Positions 4,894 to 16,674 of a stretch of 24,000 bases of DNA are shown one piece after another. A program made the translations under genes and the position numbers. Each line of letters starts with the position of its first letter. The stretch's first letter is position 1. The notes beneath the pieces are model-generated. The model ran no database searches and had not been told where the DNA came from. It saw only the letters and a program-made list of their open reading frames with translations. The DNA is taken from NCBI RefSeq assembly GCF_900631615.1, contig NZ_LR131273.1, forward strand, positions 2,302,850 to 2,326,849, read 5' to 3'. This stretch comes from Tsukamurella paurometabola (GTDB lineage: Bacteria; Actinomycetota; Actinomycetes; Mycobacteriales; Mycobacteriaceae).

Positions 4894-4903
4894 CCCGGCT
4901 CCA

Positions 4904-5950
4904 TCAGTCCCGGAAGTCCACCAGCACCTTCCCGGACGCGGCGGAGTCGCGGGCGATGGCGAAGGCCTCCACGGCGTCGGCGGCGGGCAGCACGTGGGTC
5001 ACCACGCCGTGCACGTCCAGCGTGCCGTCGGCGAGCGCGGCGATCACGTCGTCGATCTCGTCGTTGAACCGCAGCGCGCCGCGCAGGTCCAGCTCGCGGG
5101 TGATGGCCCGCGCCGCGGGGAAGTCGATGTCGCCCGCCTGCTGCAGCCCGAGCAGCACGACGACGCCGCCGCGCGCCGCCGCGTCGACCGCGGCGTGCAG
5201 GCCGGGCACCGTGCCGGAGGACTCGATCACCACGTCCGCGTGCAGTGCGGCGATCGCGTCGGACTCCCGGGCGTCGAGCGCCGCAGCGGCGCCCAGCGTC
5301 AGCGCGCGCTCCCGGGGACCGGCCGCGATGTCCGTGGCCACGACCTCGGCGGCGCCGTGGTGCAGCGCCACCGCGATCGCGAGCAGCCCGATCGGACCCG
5401 CGCCGATCACCGCGACCCGCTTGCCCGCGACGTCGCCGGCCCGCGCGAGCCCGTGCCAGGCGACCGCGGCGGGCTCGATGAGGGCCGCGTCCCGCGGATC
5501 GATCCCGGCGGGCAGTGCACGCAGCATCCGCGTGGGCAGCGCGACGCGGCGGGCGAAGGCACCGTCGCAGTGCGGGAAGTGGGCAGCCGAACCGAGATAC
5601 GTGGACGCGGGCGCGAGGTTCGGGCGGTCCGCCGGGTACGGCACCCCGTCGACCCCGTGCGGCGTGCCGGGGTGCACGGCGACGGGCGTGCCCGCTGCCG
5701 GCCCGGAACCGTCGGCCGCGGCCCGATCGACGGTGCCCACCACCTCGTGTCCGAGCACCATGGGAGCGCGCAGGATCGACGTGCCGGCGGCGCCGTGCAA
5801 CCAGTAGTGCAGGTCGGAGCCGCAGACGCCGCCGTAGTCGATCGCGATGACGGCCTCATCGTCGGCGGGGACCGGCTCGGGGCGCTCCTCGACGCGGAGG
5901 TCGCTCGCGGCGTGGGCGACGACGGCGAGATTCACGGTGTTCTCCTTCAT
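4904..5950 (-). CDS. idnD: Zn-dependent MDR dehydrogenase, L-idonate 5-dehydrogenase-like, 348 aa
   Basis: GGVCGSDLHYW, MVLGHEVVG, GSAAHFPHCDGAF and the GAGPIG Rossmann motif align by eye along the whole length with E. coli IdnD. ATG start at 5950 (MKENTVNL). The remainder of the 1125-aa track ORF is read-through in a non-coding frame. Confidence 0.75.
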   Translation of the reverse strand: MKENTVNLAVVAHAASDLRVEERPEPVPADDEAVIAIDYGGVCGSDLHYWLHGAAGTSILRAPMVLGHEVVGTVDRAAADGSGPAAGTPVAVHPGTPHGVDGVPYPADRPNLAPASTYLGSAAHFPHCDGAFARRVALPTRMLRALPAGIDPRDAALIEPAAVAWHGLARAGDVAGKRVAVIGAGPIGLLAIAVALHHGAAEVVATDIAAGPRERALTLGAAAALDARESDAIAALHADVVIESSGTVPGLHAAVDAAARGGVVVLLGLQQAGDIDFPAARAITRELDLRGALRFNDEIDDVIAALADGTLDVHGVVTHVLPAADAVEAFAIARDSAASGKVLVDFRD

Positions 5951-6717
5951 ACGACGGCCGTCATGCCGCCGTCGACGTACAGGACCTGTCCGTTGACGAA
6001 CGCGGACGCCTCGGAGGCGAGGAAGACGAGCGGTCCGACCAGGTCCGCGACGTCGCCCCAGCGTGCGGCCGGCGTGCGGCCGGCCACCCACGCGGAGAAC
6101 TCGGCATCGTCCACGAGGGCCTGCGTCAGTTCCGTCGCGAAGTAGCCGGGGGCGATCGCGTTGGCGGTGATGCCGTGCGGCGCGAGCTCGGCGCAGAGCC
6201 CCTTGGTCAGCATGACGATGCCGCCCTTGGTCGCCGCGTAGGGCGTGATGTTCGGGCGGGCGAGCTGCGACTGCACCGAGCCGACGTTGATGATCCGGCC
6301 GCTGCCGCGCGCGATCATGCCCGCCGCGACCCGCTTCGCGAGTAGGAAGGCGCTGGTGAGGTTGGTGGCGATCAGCGCGCTCCAGTCGGCGGCCGGGAAC
6401 TCGGTGAGCGGGTGCCGGATCTGCATGCCCGCGTTGTTCACCAGGATGTCCGGGGTGCCGTGCTCGGCTTCGATCGCGGCGATCGCGGCGTCGACGGCGG
6501 CCTCGTCGGTCACGTCGAAGGCCGTGGCGTGCACGGGGTTCCCGGTCGCGATCTCCCCGGCGACTCGACGGGCCGTGTCCGCGTCGCGGCCGTGGACGAG
6601 GACGGTGGCGCCCGCCGCGGAGAGGCCCTCCGCGAGCCGTCGGCCGATGCCGCGGGTGCTGCCGGTGACGAGCGCGGTGCGGCCCGTCAGGTCGAAGGCG
6701 GAGGTGTCGCTGGGCAT
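5947..6717 (-). CDS. idnO: SDR oxidoreductase, gluconate 5-dehydrogenase-like, 256 aa
   Basis: TGSTRGIG, NNAG and YAATKGG (YxxxK) are present. The C-terminal block RTPAARWGD...FVNGQ..YVDGGM is very close to E. coli IdnO/Gno. Its stop overlaps the start of the idnD-like gene by 4 nt. Confidence 0.85.
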   Translation of the reverse strand: MPSDTSAFDLTGRTALVTGSTRGIGRRLAEGLSAAGATVLVHGRDADTARRVAGEIATGNPVHATAFDVTDEAAVDAAIAAIEAEHGTPDILVNNAGMQIRHPLTEFPAADWSALIATNLTSAFLLAKRVAAGMIARGSGRIINVGSVQSQLARPNITPYAATKGGIVMLTKGLCAELAPHGITANAIAPGYFATELTQALVDDAEFSAWVAGRTPAARWGDVADLVGPLVFLASEASAFVNGQVLYVDGGMTAVV

Positions 6718-6726
6718 GGTGGCCTT

Positions 6727-8187
6727 TCAGTGCGTGGCGGCCGGTGCGGGTGCCGCGGCGGGCGTGGACACGGCGGGGGAGGGGAAGTCGAGAGTGCTCA
6801 GCGCGGCGGTGCCGGGCACGGCGTAGCCCTCCCCGGCCTCCGCGTCCGAGACCTTGACCGCGTCGTCGGTGCGCGTGAGGTCGCGGCCCACCGTCTCGGG
6901 GACGAGGAAGGTGCTCGCGGCGGTGATGGTGCAGAGCGTGACCATGTACAGGCCCAGGACGAGCCAGTTCCCGTCGGTCACCTTGATCAGGTACGCGCCG
7001 AGCACACCGGCCACGCCGCCGGCGAGGACGGCCGAGATCTCGCGGGCCATGGCGACGCCCAGGTAGCGGTGCCGCGCGCCGAACATCTCGGGGATGAGTG
7101 CGCACTGCGGGCCGAGCATCGAGTTGACGCCCACGCCGATGCCGATCGCGATCACCGCGACCGCGACGGCGTGGTTCTGCAGGGTCAGCGCCCACCAGGC
7201 GGGCAGCGCGTAGGCGAGTAGGAACAGCGCCCCGGCGCGGTAGACGATCCGGCGGCCGAACCGGTCGGAGAGGTGCCCGGTGAACGGGACGGAGAACACG
7301 CCGATGAGGGAGCCGAGCGTGACACCCCAGGTGAGCACTCCCTTGTCGGCGCCCGGGCCGGTGACGCTGACGAAGAACGACAGCGCCAGTGCCTGGAACA
7401 TGTACGAGCCGCCGTTCTCCGCCATGCGCAGGCCGATGCCGACGAGCACGCCCGGGAAGCCGTGCCGGAACAATTCGCGCACGGGCTTGTCCGCCACCTG
7501 CTCCTGCTTCTCCAGCTCGACGAAGGTCGGAGTCTCCTGCAGCTTCATCCGGATCGCGACGGCGAGCAGGATCAGCAGGAAGGAGGAGAGGAACGGCACG
7601 CGCCAGCCCCAACTGAGCATGGCGTCCTCGGGCAGCATGCTGATGAGGGTGAACACCAGCGCGGCGAGCAGCGTGCCGGCCTGGATGCCGATGAACGGCA
7701 GCGCGGAGAAGAATCCGCGGCGTTTCACCGGCGCGTACTCGGCCATGAGCACCGTCGAGCCGGCCTGCTCGGCGCCGGCGCCGAAGCCCTGGAGCAGCCG
7801 CAGCGTCACCAGCATGATGGGCGCCCAGATCCCGATCGACTCGTAGGTGGGCAGCAGGCCGATCAGGGTGGAGGCGCCGCCCATCAGCATGATCGTGATG
7901 ACCAGTACCGCCTTGCGGCCGACCTTGTCGCCGAGGCGGCCGAAGAACAGGCCGCCGAACGGCCGGGCTGCGAAGCCGACGCCGAACGTCGCGAAGGCGG
8001 CCACCGTCGCCATCGCCGGATCGCCCTGCGGGAAGAACAGCACGTTGAAGATCAGGGCCGTGGACAGGCCGTACAGCGCGAAGTCGAAGTACTCGAGGGC
8101 GCTGCCGATGCTGGAGGCCAGGGTCGCGCGCTTGAGGTTCGCGGCGTACTCGGGGTCCTGCGCGGGCGAGGTGGTGGTGGTCGACAA
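6727..8187 (-). CDS. MFS transporter, metabolite:H+ symporter (MHS) family, 486 aa
   Basis: N-terminal EYFDFALYG and GGLFFGRLGDKVGRK are MHS signatures. The protein has a roughly 12-TM profile. It lies 9 nt upstream of the idnO-like gene, in the same orientation. Confidence 0.85.
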   Translation of the reverse strand: MSTTTTSPAQDPEYAANLKRATLASSIGSALEYFDFALYGLSTALIFNVLFFPQGDPAMATVAAFATFGVGFAARPFGGLFFGRLGDKVGRKAVLVITIMLMGGASTLIGLLPTYESIGIWAPIMLVTLRLLQGFGAGAEQAGSTVLMAEYAPVKRRGFFSALPFIGIQAGTLLAALVFTLISMLPEDAMLSWGWRVPFLSSFLLILLAVAIRMKLQETPTFVELEKQEQVADKPVRELFRHGFPGVLVGIGLRMAENGGSYMFQALALSFFVSVTGPGADKGVLTWGVTLGSLIGVFSVPFTGHLSDRFGRRIVYRAGALFLLAYALPAWWALTLQNHAVAVAVIAIGIGVGVNSMLGPQCALIPEMFGARHRYLGVAMAREISAVLAGGVAGVLGAYLIKVTDGNWLVLGLYMVTLCTITAASTFLVPETVGRDLTRTDDAVKVSDAEAGEGYAVPGTAALSTLDFPSPAVSTPAAAPAPAATH

Positions 8188-8295
8188 CGGCGTCTCCTTC
8201 GAACCATCGGCTCGTGACCGGCGTCACATCCGATGCCTCGACGCTAACACTGGATCGAACGGTGTACAACCAGCTGAACAAACTCGGGGATTGCG

Positions 8296-8966
8296 ACTAC
8301 CTTCTAGTCGCGATCAGCAGCGCGGTGATCGGCGCGAAGCGGTGGGCCGATCGCTACCGCGTGTAGGGCGTGACGGGGATGGAGGACAGGTCCGGCCGTC
8401 TCCATCGTGCCCAGGGCAGACGAGCCGCTGGCGCGAACGCCGGGGCATCGCGCTCCGGTTTCACCGGCGGTGAGGCCCGACGCGGATCTGCGTCTGCCGC
8501 GTTCGACCGTCGCGGCGGTACTGCGCCCCTGCCGGATGCCGCTGCTCCGGCACCTCGATCAAGCCACCGGACTACTCGTTCGGGCGCCTCGGCCGACCGC
8601 TACGAGCACAGCGCCCCAGGTGATCTCATATCCACGCTGACATCAAGAAGCTCGGAAGGATCCCGGACGGAGGAGGGCGCCGCGAGCTCGGTCGAACCGG
8701 CGGCAATCGTTACAACAAGAAGCATGGTCGCGGCTACAGGTACCTGCACCACGCGGTCGACGATCACACTCGACTGGCCTACCGCACTCTCGGCGCCGAG
8801 TGTGCTGCGCCGAGCTCTACCCGGGCGACGAGGCCCGCGCCGATCTACCCGGCCTGGCTGAATTACTACGATCACCACCGACCATATTTCCGGCATTGGC
8901 GGCCAGACCCCGATCGAACGGCTACGCGTTCACAACGTCCCCAGCCTCAACAACGAGTCGACGTGA
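8296..8966 (+). pseudogene. IS481-family transposase relic (N-terminally truncated, multiply frameshifted, catalytic core deleted)
   Basis: Pieces of an IS481-type transposase can be read across alternating frames. These are AKRWADRYRV*GVTGMEDRSGRLH (in-frame TAG at 8364-8366), LPRSTVAAVLRPCRMPLLRHLDQATG, RYEHSAPGDLI, HADIKKLGRIPDGGG...GYRYLHHAVDDHTRLAY, WLNYYDHHRP and GIGGQTPIERLRVHNV...*. The frame order is 0,1,0,2,0. The TDNG and NGKxERF blocks (second Asp and Glu of the DDE triad) are absent. Confidence 0.7.
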
Positions 8967-9023
8967 GCACCGAACACCGCCCGACAGGTGTCCCACAACC
9001 GACCCTTTCTGGGACAGTGCCGC

Positions 9024-9767
9024 CTAGCGGTTCTGCTCGGGGCGGGTGAGGAAGATGGGTTTGCCGAAGGTGGTGAGGGTGTCGTCGGTGGCGTCGGTGC
9101 TGATGGCGACGGTGGCGTAGGTGCGGACTTGGACGCCGCCGATGCAGTTGTCGACGGCGATGCGGATGTCGCGGGACATGACTTGGGCGTTGGGGCCGAC
9201 GACGGCCTTCTTGGCGTAGGGGATGTCTTTGGTGGTGCCGGGCTTGAGGATTCCGGAGATGTTGCCGGTCTCGGTGACGGTGTCCGAGAGGGTGCCGGAG
9301 AGGCTGCCGGTTCCGGTGCCGGAGACGCTGCCGCCACCTTGCCCGCCGCCGGAGCCGCCCTGTCCTTGTCCGGTGACGGTGCCGGACGCGCTGACTGTCG
9401 GCGTGATCGAGGCGGTGGTCGCGTTCGACAGTGACCCGCCAAGGGTCAAGCTGTCGGCGGTGACAGCGCAGCCAATTTGTGTACCCGTGGTCAGTGTTGC
9501 CGACTTAATTCGGCTGGTGGGCTTACGCTTTGGGTCGTTGGGGTGTTCGGCTTCGATCTTCGCTTCGCCGCCTATGGAGCTGAAGCCTTCGAAGCTCTGG
9601 GGCGATCGGTTGAGCGGCGGGACGGAGTCGAGCTTCTCTCCGAATTTGCTGACGGTGACTTTCCATCCGTCGCGGGTGATCAGTTCGCGACTGGTGTCGG
9701 CGAACTCGCCCTCGCGGATCTGCCCGGGGACCGGGACGCGCATCCGCGGTGCGGGCGGCGGGGTCAC
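9024..9767 (-). CDS. MspA-family mycomembrane porin (the annotated ORF lacks its signal peptide; the in-frame signal-like region continues to about 9938)
   Basis: By-eye alignment to M. smegmatis MspA: RDGWKVTVSKFGEKLDSVPPLNRSPQSFEGFSSIGGEAKI vs DRTLTVQQWDTFLNGVFPLDRNRLTREWFHSGRAKYI. TGTQIG matches LGYQIG. The C-terminal GGVQVRTYATVAISTDATDDTLTTFGKP matches GGVLLRPFARLIASTGDSVTTYGEP. The only canonical start in frame is GTG at 9767. Upstream in-frame codons encode RTSAASKTLVALCAAAAAATLAAGPVIAAPAP. Confidence 0.7.
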   Translation of the reverse strand: MTPPPAPRMRVPVPGQIREGEFADTSRELITRDGWKVTVSKFGEKLDSVPPLNRSPQSFEGFSSIGGEAKIEAEHPNDPKRKPTSRIKSATLTTGTQIGCAVTADSLTLGGSLSNATTASITPTVSASGTVTGQGQGGSGGGQGGGSVSGTGTGSLSGTLSDTVTETGNISGILKPGTTKDIPYAKKAVVGPNAQVMSRDIRIAVDNCIGGVQVRTYATVAISTDATDDTLTTFGKPIFLTRPEQNR

Positions 9768-9992
9768 CGCCGCCGGGGCGGCGGGCTTCGCGGCCGCCGC
9801 CGCGGGAGTCGGCTTGGGTGCCGGCGCCGGTGCGGCGATGACGGGGCCGGCGGCGAGCGTGGCCGCTGCGGCGGCGGCGCAGAGCGCGACGAGTGTCTTC
9901 GATGCCGCAGACGTACGGGTGCCACAACGGCCTACGCCTCATACCAGGAAGCAAAACAAACCGGAGACACCGGAAAGGCTGTCACAAAGGGC

Positions 9993-10214
9993 GTGGGTAG
10001 CCTTGCTGGTGCCGCTACAGGTGCCGCAATCGGCACCATGCTCTTCCCCGGTGTGGGAACACTGGCGGGCGCGGGTATCGGCGCTGTGGGGGCGGTTATC
10101 GGATCAGGGGTGGGAACCACCCTCGTTGACAAGGGGTACGATACCGCACTAAGTGCCGGTAAGGCTGTGGGCAAAGGGATTGGAAAAGCGGCATCTAAAC
10201 TGAAGTTCTGGTAG
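9993..10214 (+). CDS. Small glycine-zipper membrane protein with a Lys-rich amphipathic tail (about 73 aa; start uncertain)
   Basis: The frame is open from far upstream, where it is antisense to the porin, but the composition changes at about 9942. The first plausible starts are GTG 9993 (GGAAAGG lies 15 nt upstream) or ATG 10038. The sequence GVGSLAGAATGAAIGTMLFPGVGTLAGAGIGAVGAVIGSGVG holds at least seven overlapping GxxxG units. The tail is DKGYDTALSAGKAVGKGIGKAASKLKFW. TAG stop at 10212-10214. Confidence 0.45.
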   Translation: MGSLAGAATGAAIGTMLFPGVGTLAGAGIGAVGAVIGSGVGTTLVDKGYDTALSAGKAVGKGIGKAASKLKFW

Positions 10215-10236
10215 CCCGAGAAGAAATGGCGCGATC

Positions 10237-11055
10237 ATGAATTCAATTGCAAGTCGATGGCCGGCCGAATGGCCGAAATGGAAGATGGTCGGAGCATGGT
10301 TTGTTGCCGCCGTTCTTACAGTAGGCCTGACGGTCTTATTACTTGCGTCGTGCGCCAAATGGATCACCAGTATAAGTTCGCTAAAGGGGCGTGAGATAGT
10401 CGTAAATCTATCTGGGGCAAGCGTGCTTGCTGCGGGATTATGCATATCTCTTTCTGCGCTCATGAACATTCGAATCCGACGACGTGGTATCGCCAGGGTC
10501 ACCCCTGGTGGTAGCCCTACCTCAGCCAGGGTGGAGATTCAGTCGGCAATCTCCGTAACTCGCGTGTTCCCGATGGCTGTCGCCGTGTTTGCGTCGCTTG
10601 CCGGAGCTCTGGGGGTTGCCGCATCGATCGGGAACTGGACAGTCAAGGGGGGGTTGTATGTGTTGTTCTGGGCAACGTGGACTGCGGTCGGCGTTTATAG
10701 CATCAGGAAGATTGCCAAGACCAGTAATCCAGAACTCTTTTTCACGCTCAATGACATTTCCGTTGGTAGTCGGCGCGTTAGATGGGATGACATAGCAGAT
10801 GTGAGGCCGGCGCTTCGAGGCGCGTACCCTGTGATCGAGGCGGTTTGGCATCGCGCAGTAGGCGGCGGCGGCTACGGATCAAAGGAGGGGGTCCTAACCA
10901 TACACCCCGTTCGCTATCATTTGGACAGCTACACGATGTTGAGTGCGATCCGCCTTCTGTCACAGAGTGCTGAAACCAGGGAGCGAGCTATTAACTCTCC
11001 AGACTATGCCACCCTCCTCTTTAGTCGTGATACGACCCCGCCGGTCAGCGTGTAA
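10237..11055 (+). CDS. Hypothetical polytopic membrane protein, 272 aa (4 predicted TM helices plus a roughly 110-aa soluble C-terminal domain)
   Basis: ATG at 10237, 22 nt after the glycine-zipper ORF. Hydrophobic segments lie at about aa 17-38, 56-76, 108-131 and 136-156. The C-terminal part (LFFTLNDISVGSRRVRWDDIADV...GVLTIHPVRY) is reminiscent of bacterial PH-like domains that follow TM hairpins. About 50-57% GC by hand count, and I recognise no family. Confidence 0.6.
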   Translation: MNSIASRWPAEWPKWKMVGAWFVAAVLTVGLTVLLLASCAKWITSISSLKGREIVVNLSGASVLAAGLCISLSALMNIRIRRRGIARVTPGGSPTSARVEIQSAISVTRVFPMAVAVFASLAGALGVAASIGNWTVKGGLYVLFWATWTAVGVYSIRKIAKTSNPELFFTLNDISVGSRRVRWDDIADVRPALRGAYPVIEAVWHRAVGGGGYGSKEGVLTIHPVRYHLDSYTMLSAIRLLSQSAETRERAINSPDYATLLFSRDTTPPVSV

Positions 11056-11090
11056 GCGATTACACCTACCTAACAAGATTGGAAACAGGA

Positions 11091-11354
11091 ATGGCAAGGG
11101 GAACTGAACAAAAATACTCAGCAGAGGAATACAAGCAGGAGTGGAAACTGAATGCTCTCATGCTGACGCTAGGAGTTCTGGCGATCACTGGCGCGACGAT
11201 TGCGTTATTCAACTTAGACGAATTTTCTGCACGGATTGCCTACGGTTTCGTCCTGCCTGTTTCTGTGGTTGCTATATATAACGGGGGTAAATGGCTGTTT
11301 CGCAGCGTACTATGGTTCCGAAGCAATAGACCCCGCGCGTCGCTGCAGTCATAG
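11091..11354 (+). CDS. Hypothetical small two-TM membrane protein, about 87 aa
   Basis: ATG at 11091 is preceded by GGAAACAGGA; the track uses TTG at 11079. Two hydrophobic segments are present (LNALMLTLGVLAITGATIALF and IAYGFVLPVSVVAIY). About 42-50% GC. The TAG stop at 11352-11354 sits inside a hairpin. Confidence 0.5.
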   Translation: MARGTEQKYSAEEYKQEWKLNALMLTLGVLAITGATIALFNLDEFSARIAYGFVLPVSVVAIYNGGKWLFRSVLWFRSNRPRASLQS

Positions 11355-11367
11355 CATGAGTGCAGCG
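11341..11367 (+). terminator. Hairpin at the end of the low-GC cassette (possible intrinsic terminator without a U-tract)
   Basis: CGCTGCAGTCAT-agc-ATGAGTGCAGCG gives 11 of 12 paired positions with one G/G mismatch. It spans the stop codon of the 87-aa ORF. No T-run follows, so function is uncertain. Confidence 0.3.
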
Positions 11368-11380
11368 TCATTACGGTCCG

Positions 11381-11455
11381 TCTCAGCAAAGCATCGCGAA
11401 CGATCGTTCGTGAAACACCTTGGCCGCTGACCTGTTCGCCCAGGTCGAAGATGTA
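11381..11455 (-). pseudogene. Possible fragment of a GntR-type winged-helix regulator (HTH recognition helix only)
   Basis: The minus-strand reading YIFDLGEQVSGQGVSRTIVRDALLR contains GVSRTIVRDAL, close to the GntR-family signature GVSRtpVReAL. There is no start codon, the similarity stops on both sides, and no effector domain follows. Confidence 0.25.
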
Positions 11456-11653
11456 ACGCGACCCGTGTCCGCAACAACGTCACGCACTCCCTCGTTCTCG
11501 ATACAGTCGAGTGCATGCGAGCCGGATACGGAGAGGTTCCACCCGTGATCGACACCTCGAAGCTCTGCACGACGCACTCACTGGGGCCGGCTGCGACGAG
11601 GTGGAGGGACCGTCGCGGCTCCCGAGTGAACCAGGAGTCACCAGGATCGGTTA

Positions 11654-13138
11654 GTGTCCCGAATCATGACCACCTCACCTGCGGCACCGTCGGACCCGGA
11701 GGAGGGTGAGCACCTCACCCGAGCCCTGAGCAACCGCCACATCCAGCTCATCGCCATCGGCGGCGCCATCGGCACCGGCCTGTTCATGGGTTCCGGCAAG
11801 ACGATCTCGGTCGCCGGGCCGTCGGTGATCCTCGTGTACATGGTGATCGGCTTCATGCTGTACTTCGTCATGCGCGCGATGGGCGAGCTGCTGCTCAGCC
11901 GCACCGGCTACCGCAACTTCTCCGACTTCGCGGGCGACATCCTCGGCCCGTGGGCCGCGCATTTCACCGGATGGACCTACTGGTTCTGCTGGGTCGTCAC
12001 CGCCGTCGCCGACGTGGTGGTCATCGCGTCGGTCTACATCACCTTCTGGGCGAAGGACATTCCGCCGTGGATCCCCGCGGTCGCCGTGATCGTGCTGCTC
12101 ATCGGCCTCAACCTGCCGACGGTCCGCGCGTTCGGTGAGACCGAGTTCTGGTTCGCCATGATCAAGATCGTCGCCATCGTGGCGCTCATCGTCGTGGGCG
12201 CGGTGCTCATCATCACCGGCTTCGAGCACGACGGTGCCCGCGCCTCGCTCGCCAACCTCTGGGAGCACGGCGGCGTGTTCCCCCAGGGGTTCATGGGCTT
12301 CGTCGCCGGCTTCCAGATCGCCGTGTTCGCGTTCGTCGGCATCGAACTCGTGGGCACCGCGGCCGCCGAGACCAAGAACCCCGAGAAGAACCTGCCCCGC
12401 GCGATCAACGCCATCCCCATCCGTATCCTGCTGTTCTACGTCGGCTCGCTGGTGATCCTCATGTCCGTGGTGCCGTGGGACCGGTTCAGCAAGGACGAGT
12501 CGCCGTTCGTCATGCTCTTCACCCTCGCCGGGCTGGGCGCCGCCGCCCACCTCGTGAACGCGGTCGTCCTCACCTCGGCCATGTCGTCGGCGAACTCGGG
12601 CATCTACTCCACCTCGCGCATGGTGTACGGCCTCGCCACCGAGGGCGACGCACCGAAGGTCTTCGCCAAGCTCTCGGGCCGCAAGGTGCCCCAGAACGCG
12701 CTGTTCCTCACCGGCGTGATGCTGCTGTCGTCGGTCGTACTGCTCGCCTTCGGGCTGGACAAGTCGGCGGGCTTCACCGTGGTCACCACGGTCTCGTCGC
12801 TGTGCTTCATGTTCGTCTGGACGATCATCCTGGCCAGCTACCTCGTCTACCGCTCCCGGCGTCCTCAGGCGCACGCCGAGAGCGCCTTCAAGATGCCGCT
12901 CGGCACGATCATGCCGTGGGTGGTCTTCGCCTTCTTCCTGTTCCTGCTGTGGGCGTTCACGCGCGAGACGGACACGCTGCAGGCGATGCTCGTGACGCCG
13001 ATCTGGTTCCTCATCGTGGGTGTCGCCTATCTCGTGTTGCGCCGCAACCCCGAGCACCTCGCCGCCCGGCAGGCGTTCGCCGCGCGGGTCCAGGAGGAGA
13101 AGCGGGCCGCGGCGCAGTGGCGCGCCGCGCAGCACTGA
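11654..13138 (+). CDS. APC-superfamily amino-acid permease (AnsP/CycA-like), 494 aa
   Basis: The N-terminal block NRHIQLIAIGGAIGTGLFMGSG, with FAFVGIELVGTAAAETKNP and later blocks, aligns by eye along the whole length with E. coli AnsP. GTG at 11654 has AGGA 6 nt upstream. An in-frame ATG at 11666 is an alternative start. Confidence 0.85.
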   Translation: MSRIMTTSPAAPSDPEEGEHLTRALSNRHIQLIAIGGAIGTGLFMGSGKTISVAGPSVILVYMVIGFMLYFVMRAMGELLLSRTGYRNFSDFAGDILGPWAAHFTGWTYWFCWVVTAVADVVVIASVYITFWAKDIPPWIPAVAVIVLLIGLNLPTVRAFGETEFWFAMIKIVAIVALIVVGAVLIITGFEHDGARASLANLWEHGGVFPQGFMGFVAGFQIAVFAFVGIELVGTAAAETKNPEKNLPRAINAIPIRILLFYVGSLVILMSVVPWDRFSKDESPFVMLFTLAGLGAAAHLVNAVVLTSAMSSANSGIYSTSRMVYGLATEGDAPKVFAKLSGRKVPQNALFLTGVMLLSSVVLLAFGLDKSAGFTVVTTVSSLCFMFVWTIILASYLVYRSRRPQAHAESAFKMPLGTIMPWVVFAFFLFLLWAFTRETDTLQAMLVTPIWFLIVGVAYLVLRRNPEHLAARQAFAARVQEEKRAAAQWRAAQH

Positions 13139-14356: not shown

Positions 14357-14544
14357 GACCGCAGTATCGCGCCGGGGTCCGACAAGTGTTCTCCGCCCGA
14401 CGGGTCGGAACCCGACGACCCGGCCGGAGGAGGTCGTCCCGCGTCCTGATCGGTAGCTGACGTCACGAAACGGAGGACGGGACCGTCGATCGTGACTAGC
14501 ATCGTGGAATGGAGCCAGCAGATCGTTCCGGTGCTCCTGCGACG

Positions 14545-15636
14545 ATGAGGGCAGTGCAGTTGGTCGCCCACGGCGGCCTGGACAACCTCGTCTACCGCGA
14601 GGACGTACCCGTTCCCAGCCCCGCCCCCGGCGAGGTGCTCATCGACGTCCACGCGTGCGGCATGAACAACACCGACGTGTGGGTCCGCGAGGGCGCCTAC
14701 GGCACCGAGACCGACCCCGGGTCGGTGTCCACGTGGCGGCGCGGCCGCTCGACCCTGACCTTTCCGCGGATCCAGGGCGCCGACATCGTCGGGCGGATCG
14801 CCGCCGTCGGCGAGGGGGTCGACGCGGGCCGGGTGGGCCAGCGCGTGATGGTGGACTTCAGCCTCTACAACCGTCCCGAGGGGGACGAGAGCCTGGCCGA
14901 CATCGACTACATCGGCCACGGTCGCGACGGCGGCTACGCCGAATTCGTCACCGTCCCCGCGGAGAACGCCCACGCCGTGGTCACCGACATGGCGGACGCC
15001 GAGCTCGCGACCTTCTGCTGCGCCTACCTCACCGCGGAGCAGATGCTCGACCGGGCGCGGCTGGCCGGCGGGGAGAACGTCGTCGTGACCGGGGCTTCCG
15101 GCGGCGTCGGCTCGGCGATCGTCCAGCTGGCCCGGGTGCGCGGTGCGGTCCCCTACGCCATCACGAGCCGGGGCAAGGAACAGGCGCTGCTCGACATCGG
15201 GGCGGAGCGGGCCGTCCTGCGCGGCGAGGGGGACCTCGTCGGCGAGGTCGAGCGGGTGGTCGACGGTCCCGTGGACGTGGTGGCCGATCTCGTCGCGGGG
15301 TCGATGTTCAACGACCTGCTGCGGATACTGCGCCCGGAGGGCCGCTACACGACCGCCGGCGCCATCGGCGGTGCCGTGGTTCAGCTCGACCTGCGGACGA
15401 TGTACTTGAAACAGCTCGAGCTGCACGGTTCCTCGCAGGGCACCCGCACGGCGTTCCGCCGTCTGGTCGGCTACATCGAGGCGGGTGCCGTCCGACCGCT
15501 GCTGCACGGCACCTACCGGCTGTCGCGGCTCCGGGACGCCCAGCGCGAGTTCATGGCGAAGACCTACGTGGGGAACCTCGTGGTCGTGCCCGACCGGCAC
15601 TGGGCGGACGTGGGGGCGCCCCATGCTGCGGCGTGA
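14545..15636 (+). CDS. MDR-superfamily NAD(P)-dependent oxidoreductase, zinc-independent (quinone-oxidoreductase-like)
   Basis: MRAVQL...GEVLIDVHACGMNNTD, GADIVG in place of the catalytic GHE, and VTGASGGVGS as the cofactor loop. ATG at 14545 is preferred by family N-terminus; an in-frame ATG at 14509 is the alternative. Confidence 0.8.
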   Translation: MRAVQLVAHGGLDNLVYREDVPVPSPAPGEVLIDVHACGMNNTDVWVREGAYGTETDPGSVSTWRRGRSTLTFPRIQGADIVGRIAAVGEGVDAGRVGQRVMVDFSLYNRPEGDESLADIDYIGHGRDGGYAEFVTVPAENAHAVVTDMADAELATFCCAYLTAEQMLDRARLAGGENVVVTGASGGVGSAIVQLARVRGAVPYAITSRGKEQALLDIGAERAVLRGEGDLVGEVERVVDGPVDVVADLVAGSMFNDLLRILRPEGRYTTAGAIGGAVVQLDLRTMYLKQLELHGSSQGTRTAFRRLVGYIEAGAVRPLLHGTYRLSRLRDAQREFMAKTYVGNLVVVPDRHWADVGAPHAAA

Positions 15637-16660
15637 GTGCTCGCTCGAGCTGATCGACACCCAGTCGGGTGGCGACGTCAGCCGGATCGTCGTCGCGGGC
15701 ATCGGCCCGATCCCGGGAACGACGGTGCGCGCGAAGGCCCGCTACCTGCAGGATGAGGGCGACGGGCTGCGTCGGCTGCTGCTCTCGGAGCCCTACGGCG
15801 ACCCGGCGATGTCGGTGGACCTCATCGTGGAGCCGAGCCGCCCCGAGGCGCAGGCCGGGTACATCATCATGGAGGCCATGGGCTACCCGATGTACTCGGG
15901 CTCCAACACGATCTGCACGGCGACCGCGCTGCTGCAGAGCGGCGCGATTCCGGCGCGCGAGGGGGCGCAGAACGTGGTCCTGGAGTCGCCGGCCGGGCTG
16001 GCGCGGATCGAGGCCGTGGTCCACGACGGCCGCGTGGAGTCGATCACGACGCAGGGCGAGCCCGCGTACGTCGCCCGGGAGGGGCTCTCCGTCGAGGTCC
16101 CGTACTACGGCACCGTCGGGTTCGACCTGGTGTGGAGCGGCGCGTACTACGCGATGATCGATGCCGGCGCCCACGACTTCACGCTCGCGTCCGAGGAGCA
16201 GATCGCGCTGACCGCGTTCGGCGACGCCTTCGTTCGGGCGGCGCGTCCGGACCTGCTGCAGGAACATCCCGACCTGGGCGACGTGGGCCCGTTGTCGTTC
16301 GCCCACTTCACCGGTGGCGTCCGCACGATCGGCGACGGGCGGTTCGAGTCGCGTTCGGCGACGTACGTCCACCCCGGAGTGCTGTGCCGCAGCCCGACGG
16401 GCACGGGCACATCCGCGCGCCTCGCGCTGATGCACCGGCGCGGCGAGATCACCGAGGGGCAGTCGCTGGAGACGATCTCCCCGCGCGGCAATCGGTTCGT
16501 CGGCACGGTCCGGTCGTCGGGGAGGGTGGGCGACTACCCGGCGTTGCACTCCGCCATCACGGGTCGAGCGCGCCTGATCGCGCACTCTCGGCTGGTGGTG
16601 GACCTGGAGGATCCGCTCGTCGACGCATCCGACTTGGAGAACCTGCTCACAGTCGACTGA
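15623..16660 (+). CDS. Proline racemase / hydroxyproline epimerase / dehydratase superfamily protein, divergent Ser/Thr variant, 345 aa
   Basis: Superfamily blocks are recognisable: GYPMYSGSNTIC aligns with GYLGMCGHGTIG, and CRSPTGTGTSARLA aligns with DRSPCGTGTSAKLA. Both catalytic Cys positions are replaced (Ser and Thr). The ATG at 15623 overlaps the upstream gene by 14 nt. Confidence 0.8.
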   Translation: MLRRECSLELIDTQSGGDVSRIVVAGIGPIPGTTVRAKARYLQDEGDGLRRLLLSEPYGDPAMSVDLIVEPSRPEAQAGYIIMEAMGYPMYSGSNTICTATALLQSGAIPAREGAQNVVLESPAGLARIEAVVHDGRVESITTQGEPAYVAREGLSVEVPYYGTVGFDLVWSGAYYAMIDAGAHDFTLASEEQIALTAFGDAFVRAARPDLLQEHPDLGDVGPLSFAHFTGGVRTIGDGRFESRSATYVHPGVLCRSPTGTGTSARLALMHRRGEITEGQSLETISPRGNRFVGTVRSSGRVGDYPALHSAITGRARLIAHSRLVVDLEDPLVDASDLENLLTVD

Positions 16661-16674
16661 AGGGGCTGGCGCTG

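Follow-up and report, generated by a model that had tools for sequence, protein, structure and literature searches.

A 5'-truncated glycine-zipper gene and two intact membrane-protein genes in a low-GC mobile-element fragment of Tsukamurella paurometabola

The window analysed here is a stretch of 24,000 nucleotides (nt) from Tsukamurella paurometabola (contig NZ_LR131273.1, forward strand, positions 2,302,850 to 2,326,849). The element in question is a short open reading frame (ORF) encoding tandem glycine zippers, which ends at window position 10214 between a porin gene on its left and two small membrane-protein genes on its right. An earlier note, made from the letters of the DNA alone, had regarded it as a candidate pore-forming toxin or bacteriocin and possibly as an orphan C-terminal module. 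All coordinates below are those of the window; L-numbers designate contigs, P-numbers homologous proteins, and A1 and A9 alignments with homologues. The + frame of the ORF reads ...ATTAYASYQEAKQTGDTGKAVTKG-V(GTG 9993)-GSLAGAATGAAIGTM(ATG 10038)LFPGVGTLAGAGIGAVGAVIGSGVGTTLVDKGYDTALSAGKAVGKGIGKAASKLKFW and closes with a TAG stop at 10212-10214; written through from the GTG it is ...ATTAYASYQEAKQTGDTGKAVTKG-V-GSLAGAATGAAIGTMLFPGVGTLAGAGIGAVGAVIGSGVGTTLVDKGYDTALSAGKAVGKGIGKAASKLKFW. The ORF and the gene that it adjoins comprise the following features (aa, amino acids; E, expectation value):

9921..10214, + strand: 5'-truncated remnant of 97 codons plus stop, coding in turn for a helix ahead of the zipper, a hairpin of tandem glycine zippers and a Lys-rich amphipathic tail with ASKLKFW at its end
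9990..10115, + strand: glycine-zipper region GVGSLAGAATGAAIGTMLFPGVGTLAGAGIGAVGAVIGSGVG, two predicted helices with FPG between them
10116..10211, + strand: amphipathic cationic tail with the conserved C-terminal motif GIGKAASKLKFW, supported by hydrophobic moment and motif conservation
9993..10214, + strand: 73-aa ORF from GTG 9993 (58 aa from ATG 10038), the sole remaining translation option for the remnant; predicted as a gene of 73 aa by a gene caller on Logan contig L001
9027..9920, - strand: MspA-family porin gene (Pfam MspA, E 2e-40), 5'-truncated, with signal peptide and mature domain kept

The in-register glycines described earlier (G3-7-11-15, G23-27-31 and G34-38-42) are all found in the 42-residue zipper string, and the six Lys of the tail and its terminal KFW are equally present in 9942-10214. 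The ORF thus carries tandem in-register GxxxG repeats in hydrophobic segments of helix length, the feature by which glycine-zipper depolarising toxins are recognised. When the 42 residues, of which 14 are Gly, were shuffled 20,000 times, 1.0% of the shuffles contained three or more chains with a minimum of three Gly in register and 3.9% contained seven or more GxxxG pairs. The helical hydrophobic moment of the tail is higher than in 98% of shuffles. Conservation is stronger evidence than these statistics: the zipper glycines form invariant columns in the homologue alignments A1 and A9. Relative to the 80%-identical copy on contig L088, the ratio of nonsynonymous to synonymous substitution rates (dN/dS) is 0.067 in the zipper and 0.145 over the remnant as a whole, and the codons that precede the GTG give 0.18. 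A chance ORF was rejected, given this conservation and dN/dS values far below 1. No second copy of the zipper was detected within the 24-kilobase (kb) window by tblastn. AlphaFold2 modelling of the 97-aa remnant (17 sequences) returned helices at residues 2-14, 17-41, 45-61 and 68-94, at low confidence (predicted local distance difference test, pLDDT, 52). The 272-aa product of the next gene was modelled at a pLDDT of 42 (4 sequences); both models were too poor for fold comparison, and only secondary structure was used.

The left boundary of the remnant is sharp. Contig L089 is 98.6% identical to window 9921-11521 and L088 is 80.5% identical to 9921-11383; in both, similarity starts exactly at base 9921. 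Upstream of the equivalent position L089 and L088 keep the frame open (...KPWYNPTK...GYATTAYASYQEAK...; ...KPWYNPTKLANK...LPLVGYATTAYASYQEAK...), and this extension corresponds to residues ~470-540 of P0009, an intact protein of 625 aa from T. pulmonis (WP_156483173.1). In the window, the codons of the MspA signal peptide stand instead to the left of 9921. Between 9921 and GTG 9993 the encoded residues are homologous to P0009 (KAVTKG vs KAIVKG), to L088 and to L089, and they also match Pseudomonas fragments annotated as phage tail tape-measure (ADTAYDVVQGLRTGDTKAIASGLG). This homology ahead of the GTG, together with its dN/dS of 0.18, indicates that coding once passed through the GTG. The exact breakpoint, the frame continuing in L089 and L088 and the longer homologues indicate that the ORF represents the last 97 codons of a 5'-truncated gene. 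The earlier proposal of an orphan C-terminal fragment left by recombination is therefore borne out by the breakpoint, the upstream ORF in the two contigs, the homology before the GTG and the recurrence of the domain on larger proteins; judged from sequence comparison, it is very probably correct. As in orphan toxin C-termini, the fragment lacks a 5' part and a start codon of its own, and longer homologues exist elsewhere (full-length in P0009, a longer copy in L089).

It had also been remarked that the frame lacks a convincing start and stays open upstream into the porin gene. Both statements hold: GTG 9993 and ATG 10038 are the only in-frame ATG, GTG or TTG codons after 9477 and up to 10214, and no stop interrupts the frame as far back as 9477, on the strand opposite to the minus-strand MspA gene. 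It stays open that far because it follows an antisense path through a GC-rich gene, and a 245-aa ORF (9477-10214) was rejected as a real gene on the ground that its upstream part is antisense to the MspA gene. The porin gene is itself damaged. From its upstream stop (9939-9941) to the signal peptide it has no ATG, GTG or TTG, and on L001 the gene caller could start it only at the internal ATG 9743, without the signal peptide. The zipper remnant and the MspA gene are fused head-to-head. The absence of an MspA start codon and the junction at 9920/9921 indicate that one rearrangement decapitated both genes, so that the MspA gene, its 5' end removed by the junction, is probably a pseudogene. For annotation, the locus demonstrates that a neat small ORF and the porin gene adjoining it are both products of truncation.

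The right-hand side of the locus is occupied by two genes:

10237..11055, + strand: 272-aa membrane protein, candidate immunity protein 1, with four predicted transmembrane (TM) helices and a C-terminal soluble domain that is weakly PH-like (weak bPH_6 match)
11079..11354, + strand: 87-91-aa membrane protein with two TM helices, candidate immunity protein 2 (start at ATG 11091 as called elsewhere; 87 aa in L001, L002 and L089)

The first begins 22 nt after the stop of the zipper ORF. Its product is identical to VDR39185.1 of T. paurometabola and a homologue is labelled 'PH domain-containing' in UniRef; its family is tiny, with members only in Tsukamurella and on two short contigs among 5.8 billion sequences. 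The arrangement is reproduced in T. pulmonis, where a 257-aa gene starts 11 nt after the full-length P0009 gene and is followed by an 88-aa gene. The 272-aa and 257-aa proteins share 23% identity (E 6e-16), the 87-91-aa protein matches the 88-aa product of the third gene at 42% over 50 aa (E 6e-7), and the members of both pairs are predicted to be multi-TM proteins. Two membrane-protein genes are thus conserved downstream of the domain in the window, L088, L089 and T. pulmonis, and a different 3-TM protein follows P0055, a second homologue. Relative to L088, dN/dS is 0.30 for the 272-aa gene and 0.22 for the 87-91-aa gene; as expected of an orphan module, both genes are intact and under purifying selection, and they are also intact in L089. 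Pfam, NCBIfam and PADLOC assigned no family to either downstream protein or to the N-terminal parts of P0009 and P0055; as immunity candidates the two downstream proteins represent new families.

It is noteworthy that other copies of the zipper gene are broken. In L089, 98.6% identical over the cassette, the longer zipper gene carries a TAA stop (433-435) and, inside the zipper at the equivalent of window 10073, an 8-base-pair (bp) duplication, GGGTATCG. These lesions are an independent inactivation of the same gene, and the downstream 271-aa and 87-aa genes are intact in spite of them. Homologues of P0055 are likewise frameshifted in L090 (9461-10619) and L091 and intact in L086 and L092. The P0055 locus encodes a 120-aa 3-TM protein and then a 159-aa soluble protein, the latter also conserved (E 6e-25) beside the related protein P0062 in L128.

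GC content falls to 47-59% across about 10100-11400, compared with 65-75% in the flanks. Three further features belong to this context:

4898..11603, no strand assigned: 6.7-kb segment absent at the syntenic site of T. ocularis (blastn vs L003), holding genes for a zinc-dependent alcohol dehydrogenase, a short-chain dehydrogenase/reductase and a major facilitator superfamily (MFS) transporter, the MspA remnant and the 9921-11603 fragment
11427..11481, + strand: res-like element of ~55 bp with the palindrome GACCTG-N6-CAGGTC, non-coding, found within the upstream region of plasmid resolvase genes
11515..11600, + strand: remnant of a serine-recombinase (resolvase) gene, recognised by similarity to L088, with the first ~30 codons and a 1-nt deletion

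The permease that flanks the 6.7-kb segment is 96% identical to that of T. ocularis. The ~55-bp element is 89% identical to L083 9040-9094, downstream of the T. pulmonis cassette, whereas the cassette proteins there are only 23-61% identical. Further copies occur in L088 (463-532 and 2827-2895) and L089 (~2010-2065), with 83-100% DNA identity among copies. In L088 the element is found twice, upstream of a resolvase gene placed directly before the toxin fragment and again after the cassette. It may be a res site or mark a cassette boundary. L088 435-637, where a Pfam Resolvase gene (E 1.8e-43) begins after its upstream region, matches window 11399-11600 at 92% identity. Plasmids of Mycobacterium, Arthrobacter, Kocuria and Pseudonocardia also carry matches to this stretch, in 'recombinase family protein' genes and in the DNA ahead of them. 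By similarity, this is a resolvase gene preceded by its conserved upstream (putative res) region, and of the gene the window keeps only the first ~30 codons, frameshifted. Resolvase similarity ends at ~11600 and synteny with T. ocularis resumes at 11604. The breakpoints at 9921 and ~11600, the res-like site and the resolvase start together define 9921-11603 as a 1.7-kb low-GC mobile-element fragment cut at both ends, in which the 3' end of the toxin-like gene is followed by two membrane-protein genes, the res-like site and the 5' end of the resolvase gene.

Three proteins that match the remnant through its C-terminus were identified by exhaustive HMMER search among 1.84 billion representative proteins, and all of them end in AS[KR]LKFW: P0009, 61% identical to the remnant over the last 76 residues, P0055 (397 aa) and P0021 (190 aa). 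Since the match lies at the C-terminus of larger proteins with unrelated N-termini, the domain is a C-terminal module. The earlier note had asked whether it recurs as the C-terminus of larger toxin-delivery proteins; it does recur at the end of larger proteins (625, 397 and 190 aa), but no LXG or Rhs carrier was found. Stand-alone small zipper homologues also exist (P0014, P0041 and P0001, 87-94 aa). Other searches were less informative. A word-indexed search with a 90-aa query gave one partial relative, P0001, and generic zipper and tape-measure fragments of less than 190 aa flooded its profile version, in which P0009 and P0055 did not appear; a single-sequence search of genome contigs, flooded by low-complexity Gly/Ala patterns, gave no relative among the matches listed.

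In T. pulmonis the drop in GC begins inside the P0009 gene, at about residue 330, and runs through both small genes, which fits a foreign block of C-terminal domain plus partners joined to a resident carrier. Residues 1-330 (L083 6001-7000) constitute the high-GC half, with a hydrophobic stretch and then RRR (PSWAYLVAEAAGVIAGRRRN) where GC drops; this N-terminal half looks like a complete envelope protein on which a low-GC C-terminal block was grafted.

The terminal motif recurs elsewhere. ASxLKFW-COOH is invariant in P0009, P0021, P0055 and four phage-contig proteins. These four are otherwise unrelated small proteins ending in AS[KA]LKFW-COOH (L095 4872-5378 and 5388-5687, L118 5505-5858, L123 ~9184-9360), two of them encoded by adjoining genes (L095), with neighbours that include a tail-appendage gene, an endolysin and an M23 peptidase. 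The remaining 27 matches to the pattern look like chance. The ASKLKFW-type motif may have a function of its own, such as that of a tag for the membrane interface or for binding a partner.

The 97-codon remnant could still be working, either as a 73-aa (GTG 9993) or 58-aa (ATG 10038) peptide resembling a bacteriocin or holin or as a stretch translated mainly to couple expression of the immunity genes that follow. Three independent assemblies (window, L001 and L002) have the ORF intact and without any difference, the gene caller predicts the 73-aa product, an in-frame start codon occupies the matching position in the window (GTG) and in L088 (TTG), the next start is only 22 nt from its stop, the zipper is under strong purifying selection (dN/dS 0.067), and small stand-alone homologues of 87-94 aa are known. 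However, the codons upstream of the GTG are equally under purifying selection, which must then reflect the past of the sequence inside a longer gene rather than a miniprotein. There is no Shine-Dalgarno sequence at usable spacing before GTG 9993 (GGAAAGG lies 14 nt and AAGGG 1 nt upstream), no TANNNT -10-like site at leaderless distance from it and no promoter-like site in 9500-11700. The putative product lacks a signal peptide or double-glycine leader for export, the near-identical L089 has lost the region to its 8-bp insertion while keeping the downstream genes, and the 73-aa sequence is annotated in no public protein set searched and is absent, as an exact match, from a collection of 15 billion proteins. 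A working remnant is thus quite unlikely. The leaderless GTG-initiated miniprotein of the earlier note is disfavoured on the same grounds, coding homology passing through the GTG, and from its sequence the zipper ORF of this genome is most likely a relic.

The closest recognisable relatives of the domain appear to be glycine-zipper segments of phage tape-measure and tail proteins. PHROG profiles (tape-measure, tail-associated lysin and one endolysin) match the remnant with E from 9e-8 to 1e-5, the same profile types match P0009 and P0055, and in a profile search many fragments named 'phage tail tape-measure protein' align over 89% of the query (A9). Homology to the tape-measure zipper segment is therefore direct. 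The zipper core GAAIGTMLFPGVGT is, among the matches listed, nearly identical in L124, a 1277-aa IMG/VR tail protein with an M23 domain that carries GAAAGAAIGTMLFPGVGT; P0008, which has a peptidase M15 domain, shows KGYDAVTAV after the zipper as in the window family. These relatives raise the alternative of a phage-derived membrane module that is not an antibacterial toxin, such as a tape-measure or tail derivative with a function in lysis (holin) or superinfection exclusion, the locus being phage- or plasmid-like debris. The ASKLKFW terminus on small membrane proteins of phage tail and lysis modules (L095, L118 and L123), the resolvase and the low GC are consistent with such an origin. Several observations are not. 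The domain is not part of a long protein within a tail-gene module, and no phage genes flank the window or T. pulmonis copies: the neighbours are a Na/Ala symporter and TetR/MFS genes in T. pulmonis, a porin and a permease in the window. P0009, with 625 aa and N-terminal TM helices, is not built like a tape-measure protein. A tblastn search of 50,697 phage genomes with the remnant gave no match, although low-complexity filtering limits this test, and a similar search of a plasmid collection gave none, probably on account of low-complexity masking. Moreover, in every case the domain stands at the C-terminus and small membrane-protein genes come next, as in toxin/immunity loci, and a tape-measure-type zipper has already been co-opted by a type VI secretion system (T6SS) effector, Tde1 of A. 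tumefaciens, where it makes membranes permeable and is required to enter target cells (PMC10240207). A non-toxin phage module is consequently considered unlikely.

The window family shares with tape-measure and tail-lysin zippers, the type co-opted in Tde1, a direct sequence homology of pre-zipper helix and zipper (A9, PHROG and L124). It differs from the phage tail proteins in that the domain forms the extreme C-terminus with a cationic ASKLKFW tail, rather than lying inside a protein of >1000 aa of a tail module, and from Tde1 in that the zipper is not N-terminal to a nuclease.

Another family to be weighed is that of the ordinary envelope lipoproteins or membrane anchors (SlyB, Rickettsia 17-kDa antigen and Gly-zipper_Omp), which have in common with the window ORF a generic GxxxG-rich hairpin and give weak profile matches to it. 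The window ORF scores 21.8 bits against Pfam PF13488 Gly-zipper_Omp and P0009 22.3, both below the 25-bit gathering threshold that a tape-measure-type relative, P0022, passes at 25.9. The sole PDB profile match is a weak one to SlyB (E 0.031), and P0055 weakly matches NCBIfam YiaD (E 0.0014, 18 bits against a cut-off of 175 bits). All lipoprotein-type scores thus stay under their cut-offs, no signal peptide or lipobox occurs in the remnant or its homologues, and the domain sits at the C-terminus of proteins of 190-625 aa that are not lipoproteins, in another architecture and context. The possibility raised earlier, that the homologues would turn out to be SlyB- or 17-kDa-antigen-type lipoproteins, can on this sequence evidence be regarded as essentially refuted and such an assignment as extremely improbable.

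Among toxin systems, the nearest counterparts are the glycine-zipper toxins of type VII secretion systems (T7SS), EsxX of S. aureus (with ExiAB and ExiCD) and TelE of S. gallolyticus (with TipE), whose zipper C-termini depolarise or permeabilise membranes according to published work. Like the window family, they have a C-terminal zipper on a larger carrier, with protective genes directly downstream where the window family has candidate immunity genes, and their toxin variants are polymorphic; distant relatives of the window domain adjoin a WXG100 gene. The differences are substantial. The window family has no LXG domain and no detectable similarity to them, its host is an actinobacterium with a mycolic-acid outer membrane, the T. 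pulmonis carrier is unrelated, with multiple TM helices and low complexity, in the window the gene is truncated, and the immunity candidates form new families (4 TM plus PH-like; 2 TM). More generally, no sequence link of the domain to Tse4, Ssp6, TelE or CdzCD was detected. The earlier note had stated that all the toxins it cited are neutralised by membrane immunity proteins. This is inexact for TelE, whose immunity protein TipE is small, belongs to DUF5085 and is not reported to be a membrane protein (PMC10434224); the immunity proteins of EsxX include soluble as well as membrane ones (PMC12744356).

Tse4 and Ssp6 (T6SS) and CdzC/CdzD of Caulobacter, according to the summaries in PMC10434224 and PMC5380434, combine small hydrophobic zipper helices with adjoining membrane immunity genes. 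They depend on T6SS or the type I secretion system (T1SS), whereas no T6SS or T1SS gene was recognised beside the domain in the loci read. Orphan toxin C-terminus/immunity modules (Rhs, CdiA and LXG 'antitoxin islands') provide a parallel in organisation: a 5'-truncated fragment without a start is followed by intact immunity-like genes, full-length homologues occur in sister species, the composition is foreign and toxin copies are independently inactivated in other strains. Unlike these, the window fragment is not downstream of a full-length toxin gene within the window, and in place of repeated homology tracts it has a res-like site and a resolvase remnant at its boundary. By analogy the locus is best filed as resembling an orphan toxin-C-terminal-domain/immunity module of a glycine-zipper toxin system. 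Its distinctive traits are the actinobacterial host, the tape-measure-type zipper with ASKLKFW tail, the new candidate immunity families, the absence of an LXG, Rhs or CdiA carrier and the association with res and resolvase.

A possible export route is suggested by more distant relatives. In the actinobacterial contig L125 (9625-10465, also in L126 and L127) a WXG100 gene (W-V-G; 28.0 bits against a Pfam cut-off of 27.3) is located 20 nt upstream of the gene for P0061, a glycine-zipper protein of 154 aa, an arrangement which suggests that T7SS-exported zipper proteins exist in Actinobacteria. P0062, which shares the pre-zipper region of P0021 and P0055, adjoins an FtsK/SpoIIIE fragment (24.1 bits against 24). 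A 117-aa gene upstream of P0055 was considered as WXG100/EspC-like and abandoned, as neither Pfam nor BLAST against the L125 WXG100 protein supported it.

A toxin/immunity reading of the module can be proposed because the domain is always C-terminal on differing carriers, because small membrane-protein genes follow it at translational-coupling distance, because the module is foreign and mobile, because toxin copies decay while partner genes persist (L089; L090/L091), because relatives are linked to T7SS markers, and because the published zipper C-termini of TelE and EsxX and the Tde1 zipper act on membranes. In intact relatives, the domain would enter the cytoplasmic membrane and form oligomers by way of its GxxxG faces, turning the membrane leaky, an activity that might be toxin-like or of a translocation type. 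The two membrane proteins encoded directly downstream would neutralise it within the membrane. The whole module (C-terminal domain, two membrane-protein genes, res-like site and resolvase) is low-GC mobile DNA, which in this genome has been cut at 9920/9921 against the MspA gene and at ~11600 inside the resolvase gene. The zipper ORF has thereby lost its promoter, its ribosome-binding site and a carrier region of ~500 codons, and as a functional toxin it is in all likelihood not expressed. The downstream genes, themselves intact, would persist, and the two membrane-protein genes, currently unannotated or 'hypothetical', are by analogy probably orphan immunity genes.

The comparisons establish the truncation, the homologies, the conservation of the cassette and its setting in a mobile element; the membrane permeabilisation, the immunity function and the lack of expression in this scheme are what we infer from sequence, context and published analogues. 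A number of points weigh against it. The WXG100 and FtsK links concern relatives that have only the zipper and pre-zipper regions in common with the window family, and once composition is corrected for, P0061 and P0055 give no significant pairwise BLAST match. The N-terminus of P0009 has no secretion or delivery domain recognisable in Pfam or NCBIfam and resembles a multi-TM low-complexity envelope protein, with three hydrophobic segments and then a Pro/Gly/Gln-rich region. The Gly/Ala-rich composition of the domain inflates profile scores. In L088 a downstream gene looks frameshifted, possibly through an assembly error. The scan of 9500-11700 in which no promoter-like site was found used an E. 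coli-type consensus, which may miss actinobacterial promoters. Finally, residual expression is possible, since the remnant ORF is intact, its GTG falls exactly at the zipper start (TTG in L088) and the 22-nt gap would suit translational coupling.

On balance, a truncated toxin-like remnant with a membrane-inserting domain, followed by orphan immunity genes in a decayed mobile cassette, offers the best explanation of the locus, to which we assign a probability of roughly 0.6. For the narrower proposal that the zipper gene encodes a glycine-zipper toxin with membrane immunity, an argument from analogy, the chances seem about even. A still broader scenario, in which the zipper-ASKLKFW domain would define an undescribed tape-measure-derived family of membrane-permeabilising effectors of mycolic-acid actinobacteria, with cassettes moved by res/resolvase, WXG100/T7SS export in relatives and a 73-aa copy still made and active or needed for coupled expression of the immunity genes, is distinctly improbable as a whole.

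No glycine-zipper T7SS toxin outside Firmicutes was found in the literature searched. As the examples found are all from Firmicutes, a validated actinobacterial family would be new. It would belong to a genus of opportunistic pathogens close to mycobacteria and would bring with it two new candidate membrane immunity families. If validated, it would also be the second case, after Tde1, of a phage tape-measure zipper reused as a weapon. The association with resolvase and res suggests that the cassettes could move in a manner unlike the homology-driven swapping known for Rhs, CdiA and LXG toxins.

Elsewhere in the window, the ~840 bp between the MFS and MspA genes (8188-9026) contain no ORF with a Pfam match, the ORFs 8370-8861 (+) and 8600-8896 (-) being negative. 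A second segment of ~2.3 kb (14388-16673) is, like the 6.7-kb segment, absent from the syntenic locus of T. ocularis.

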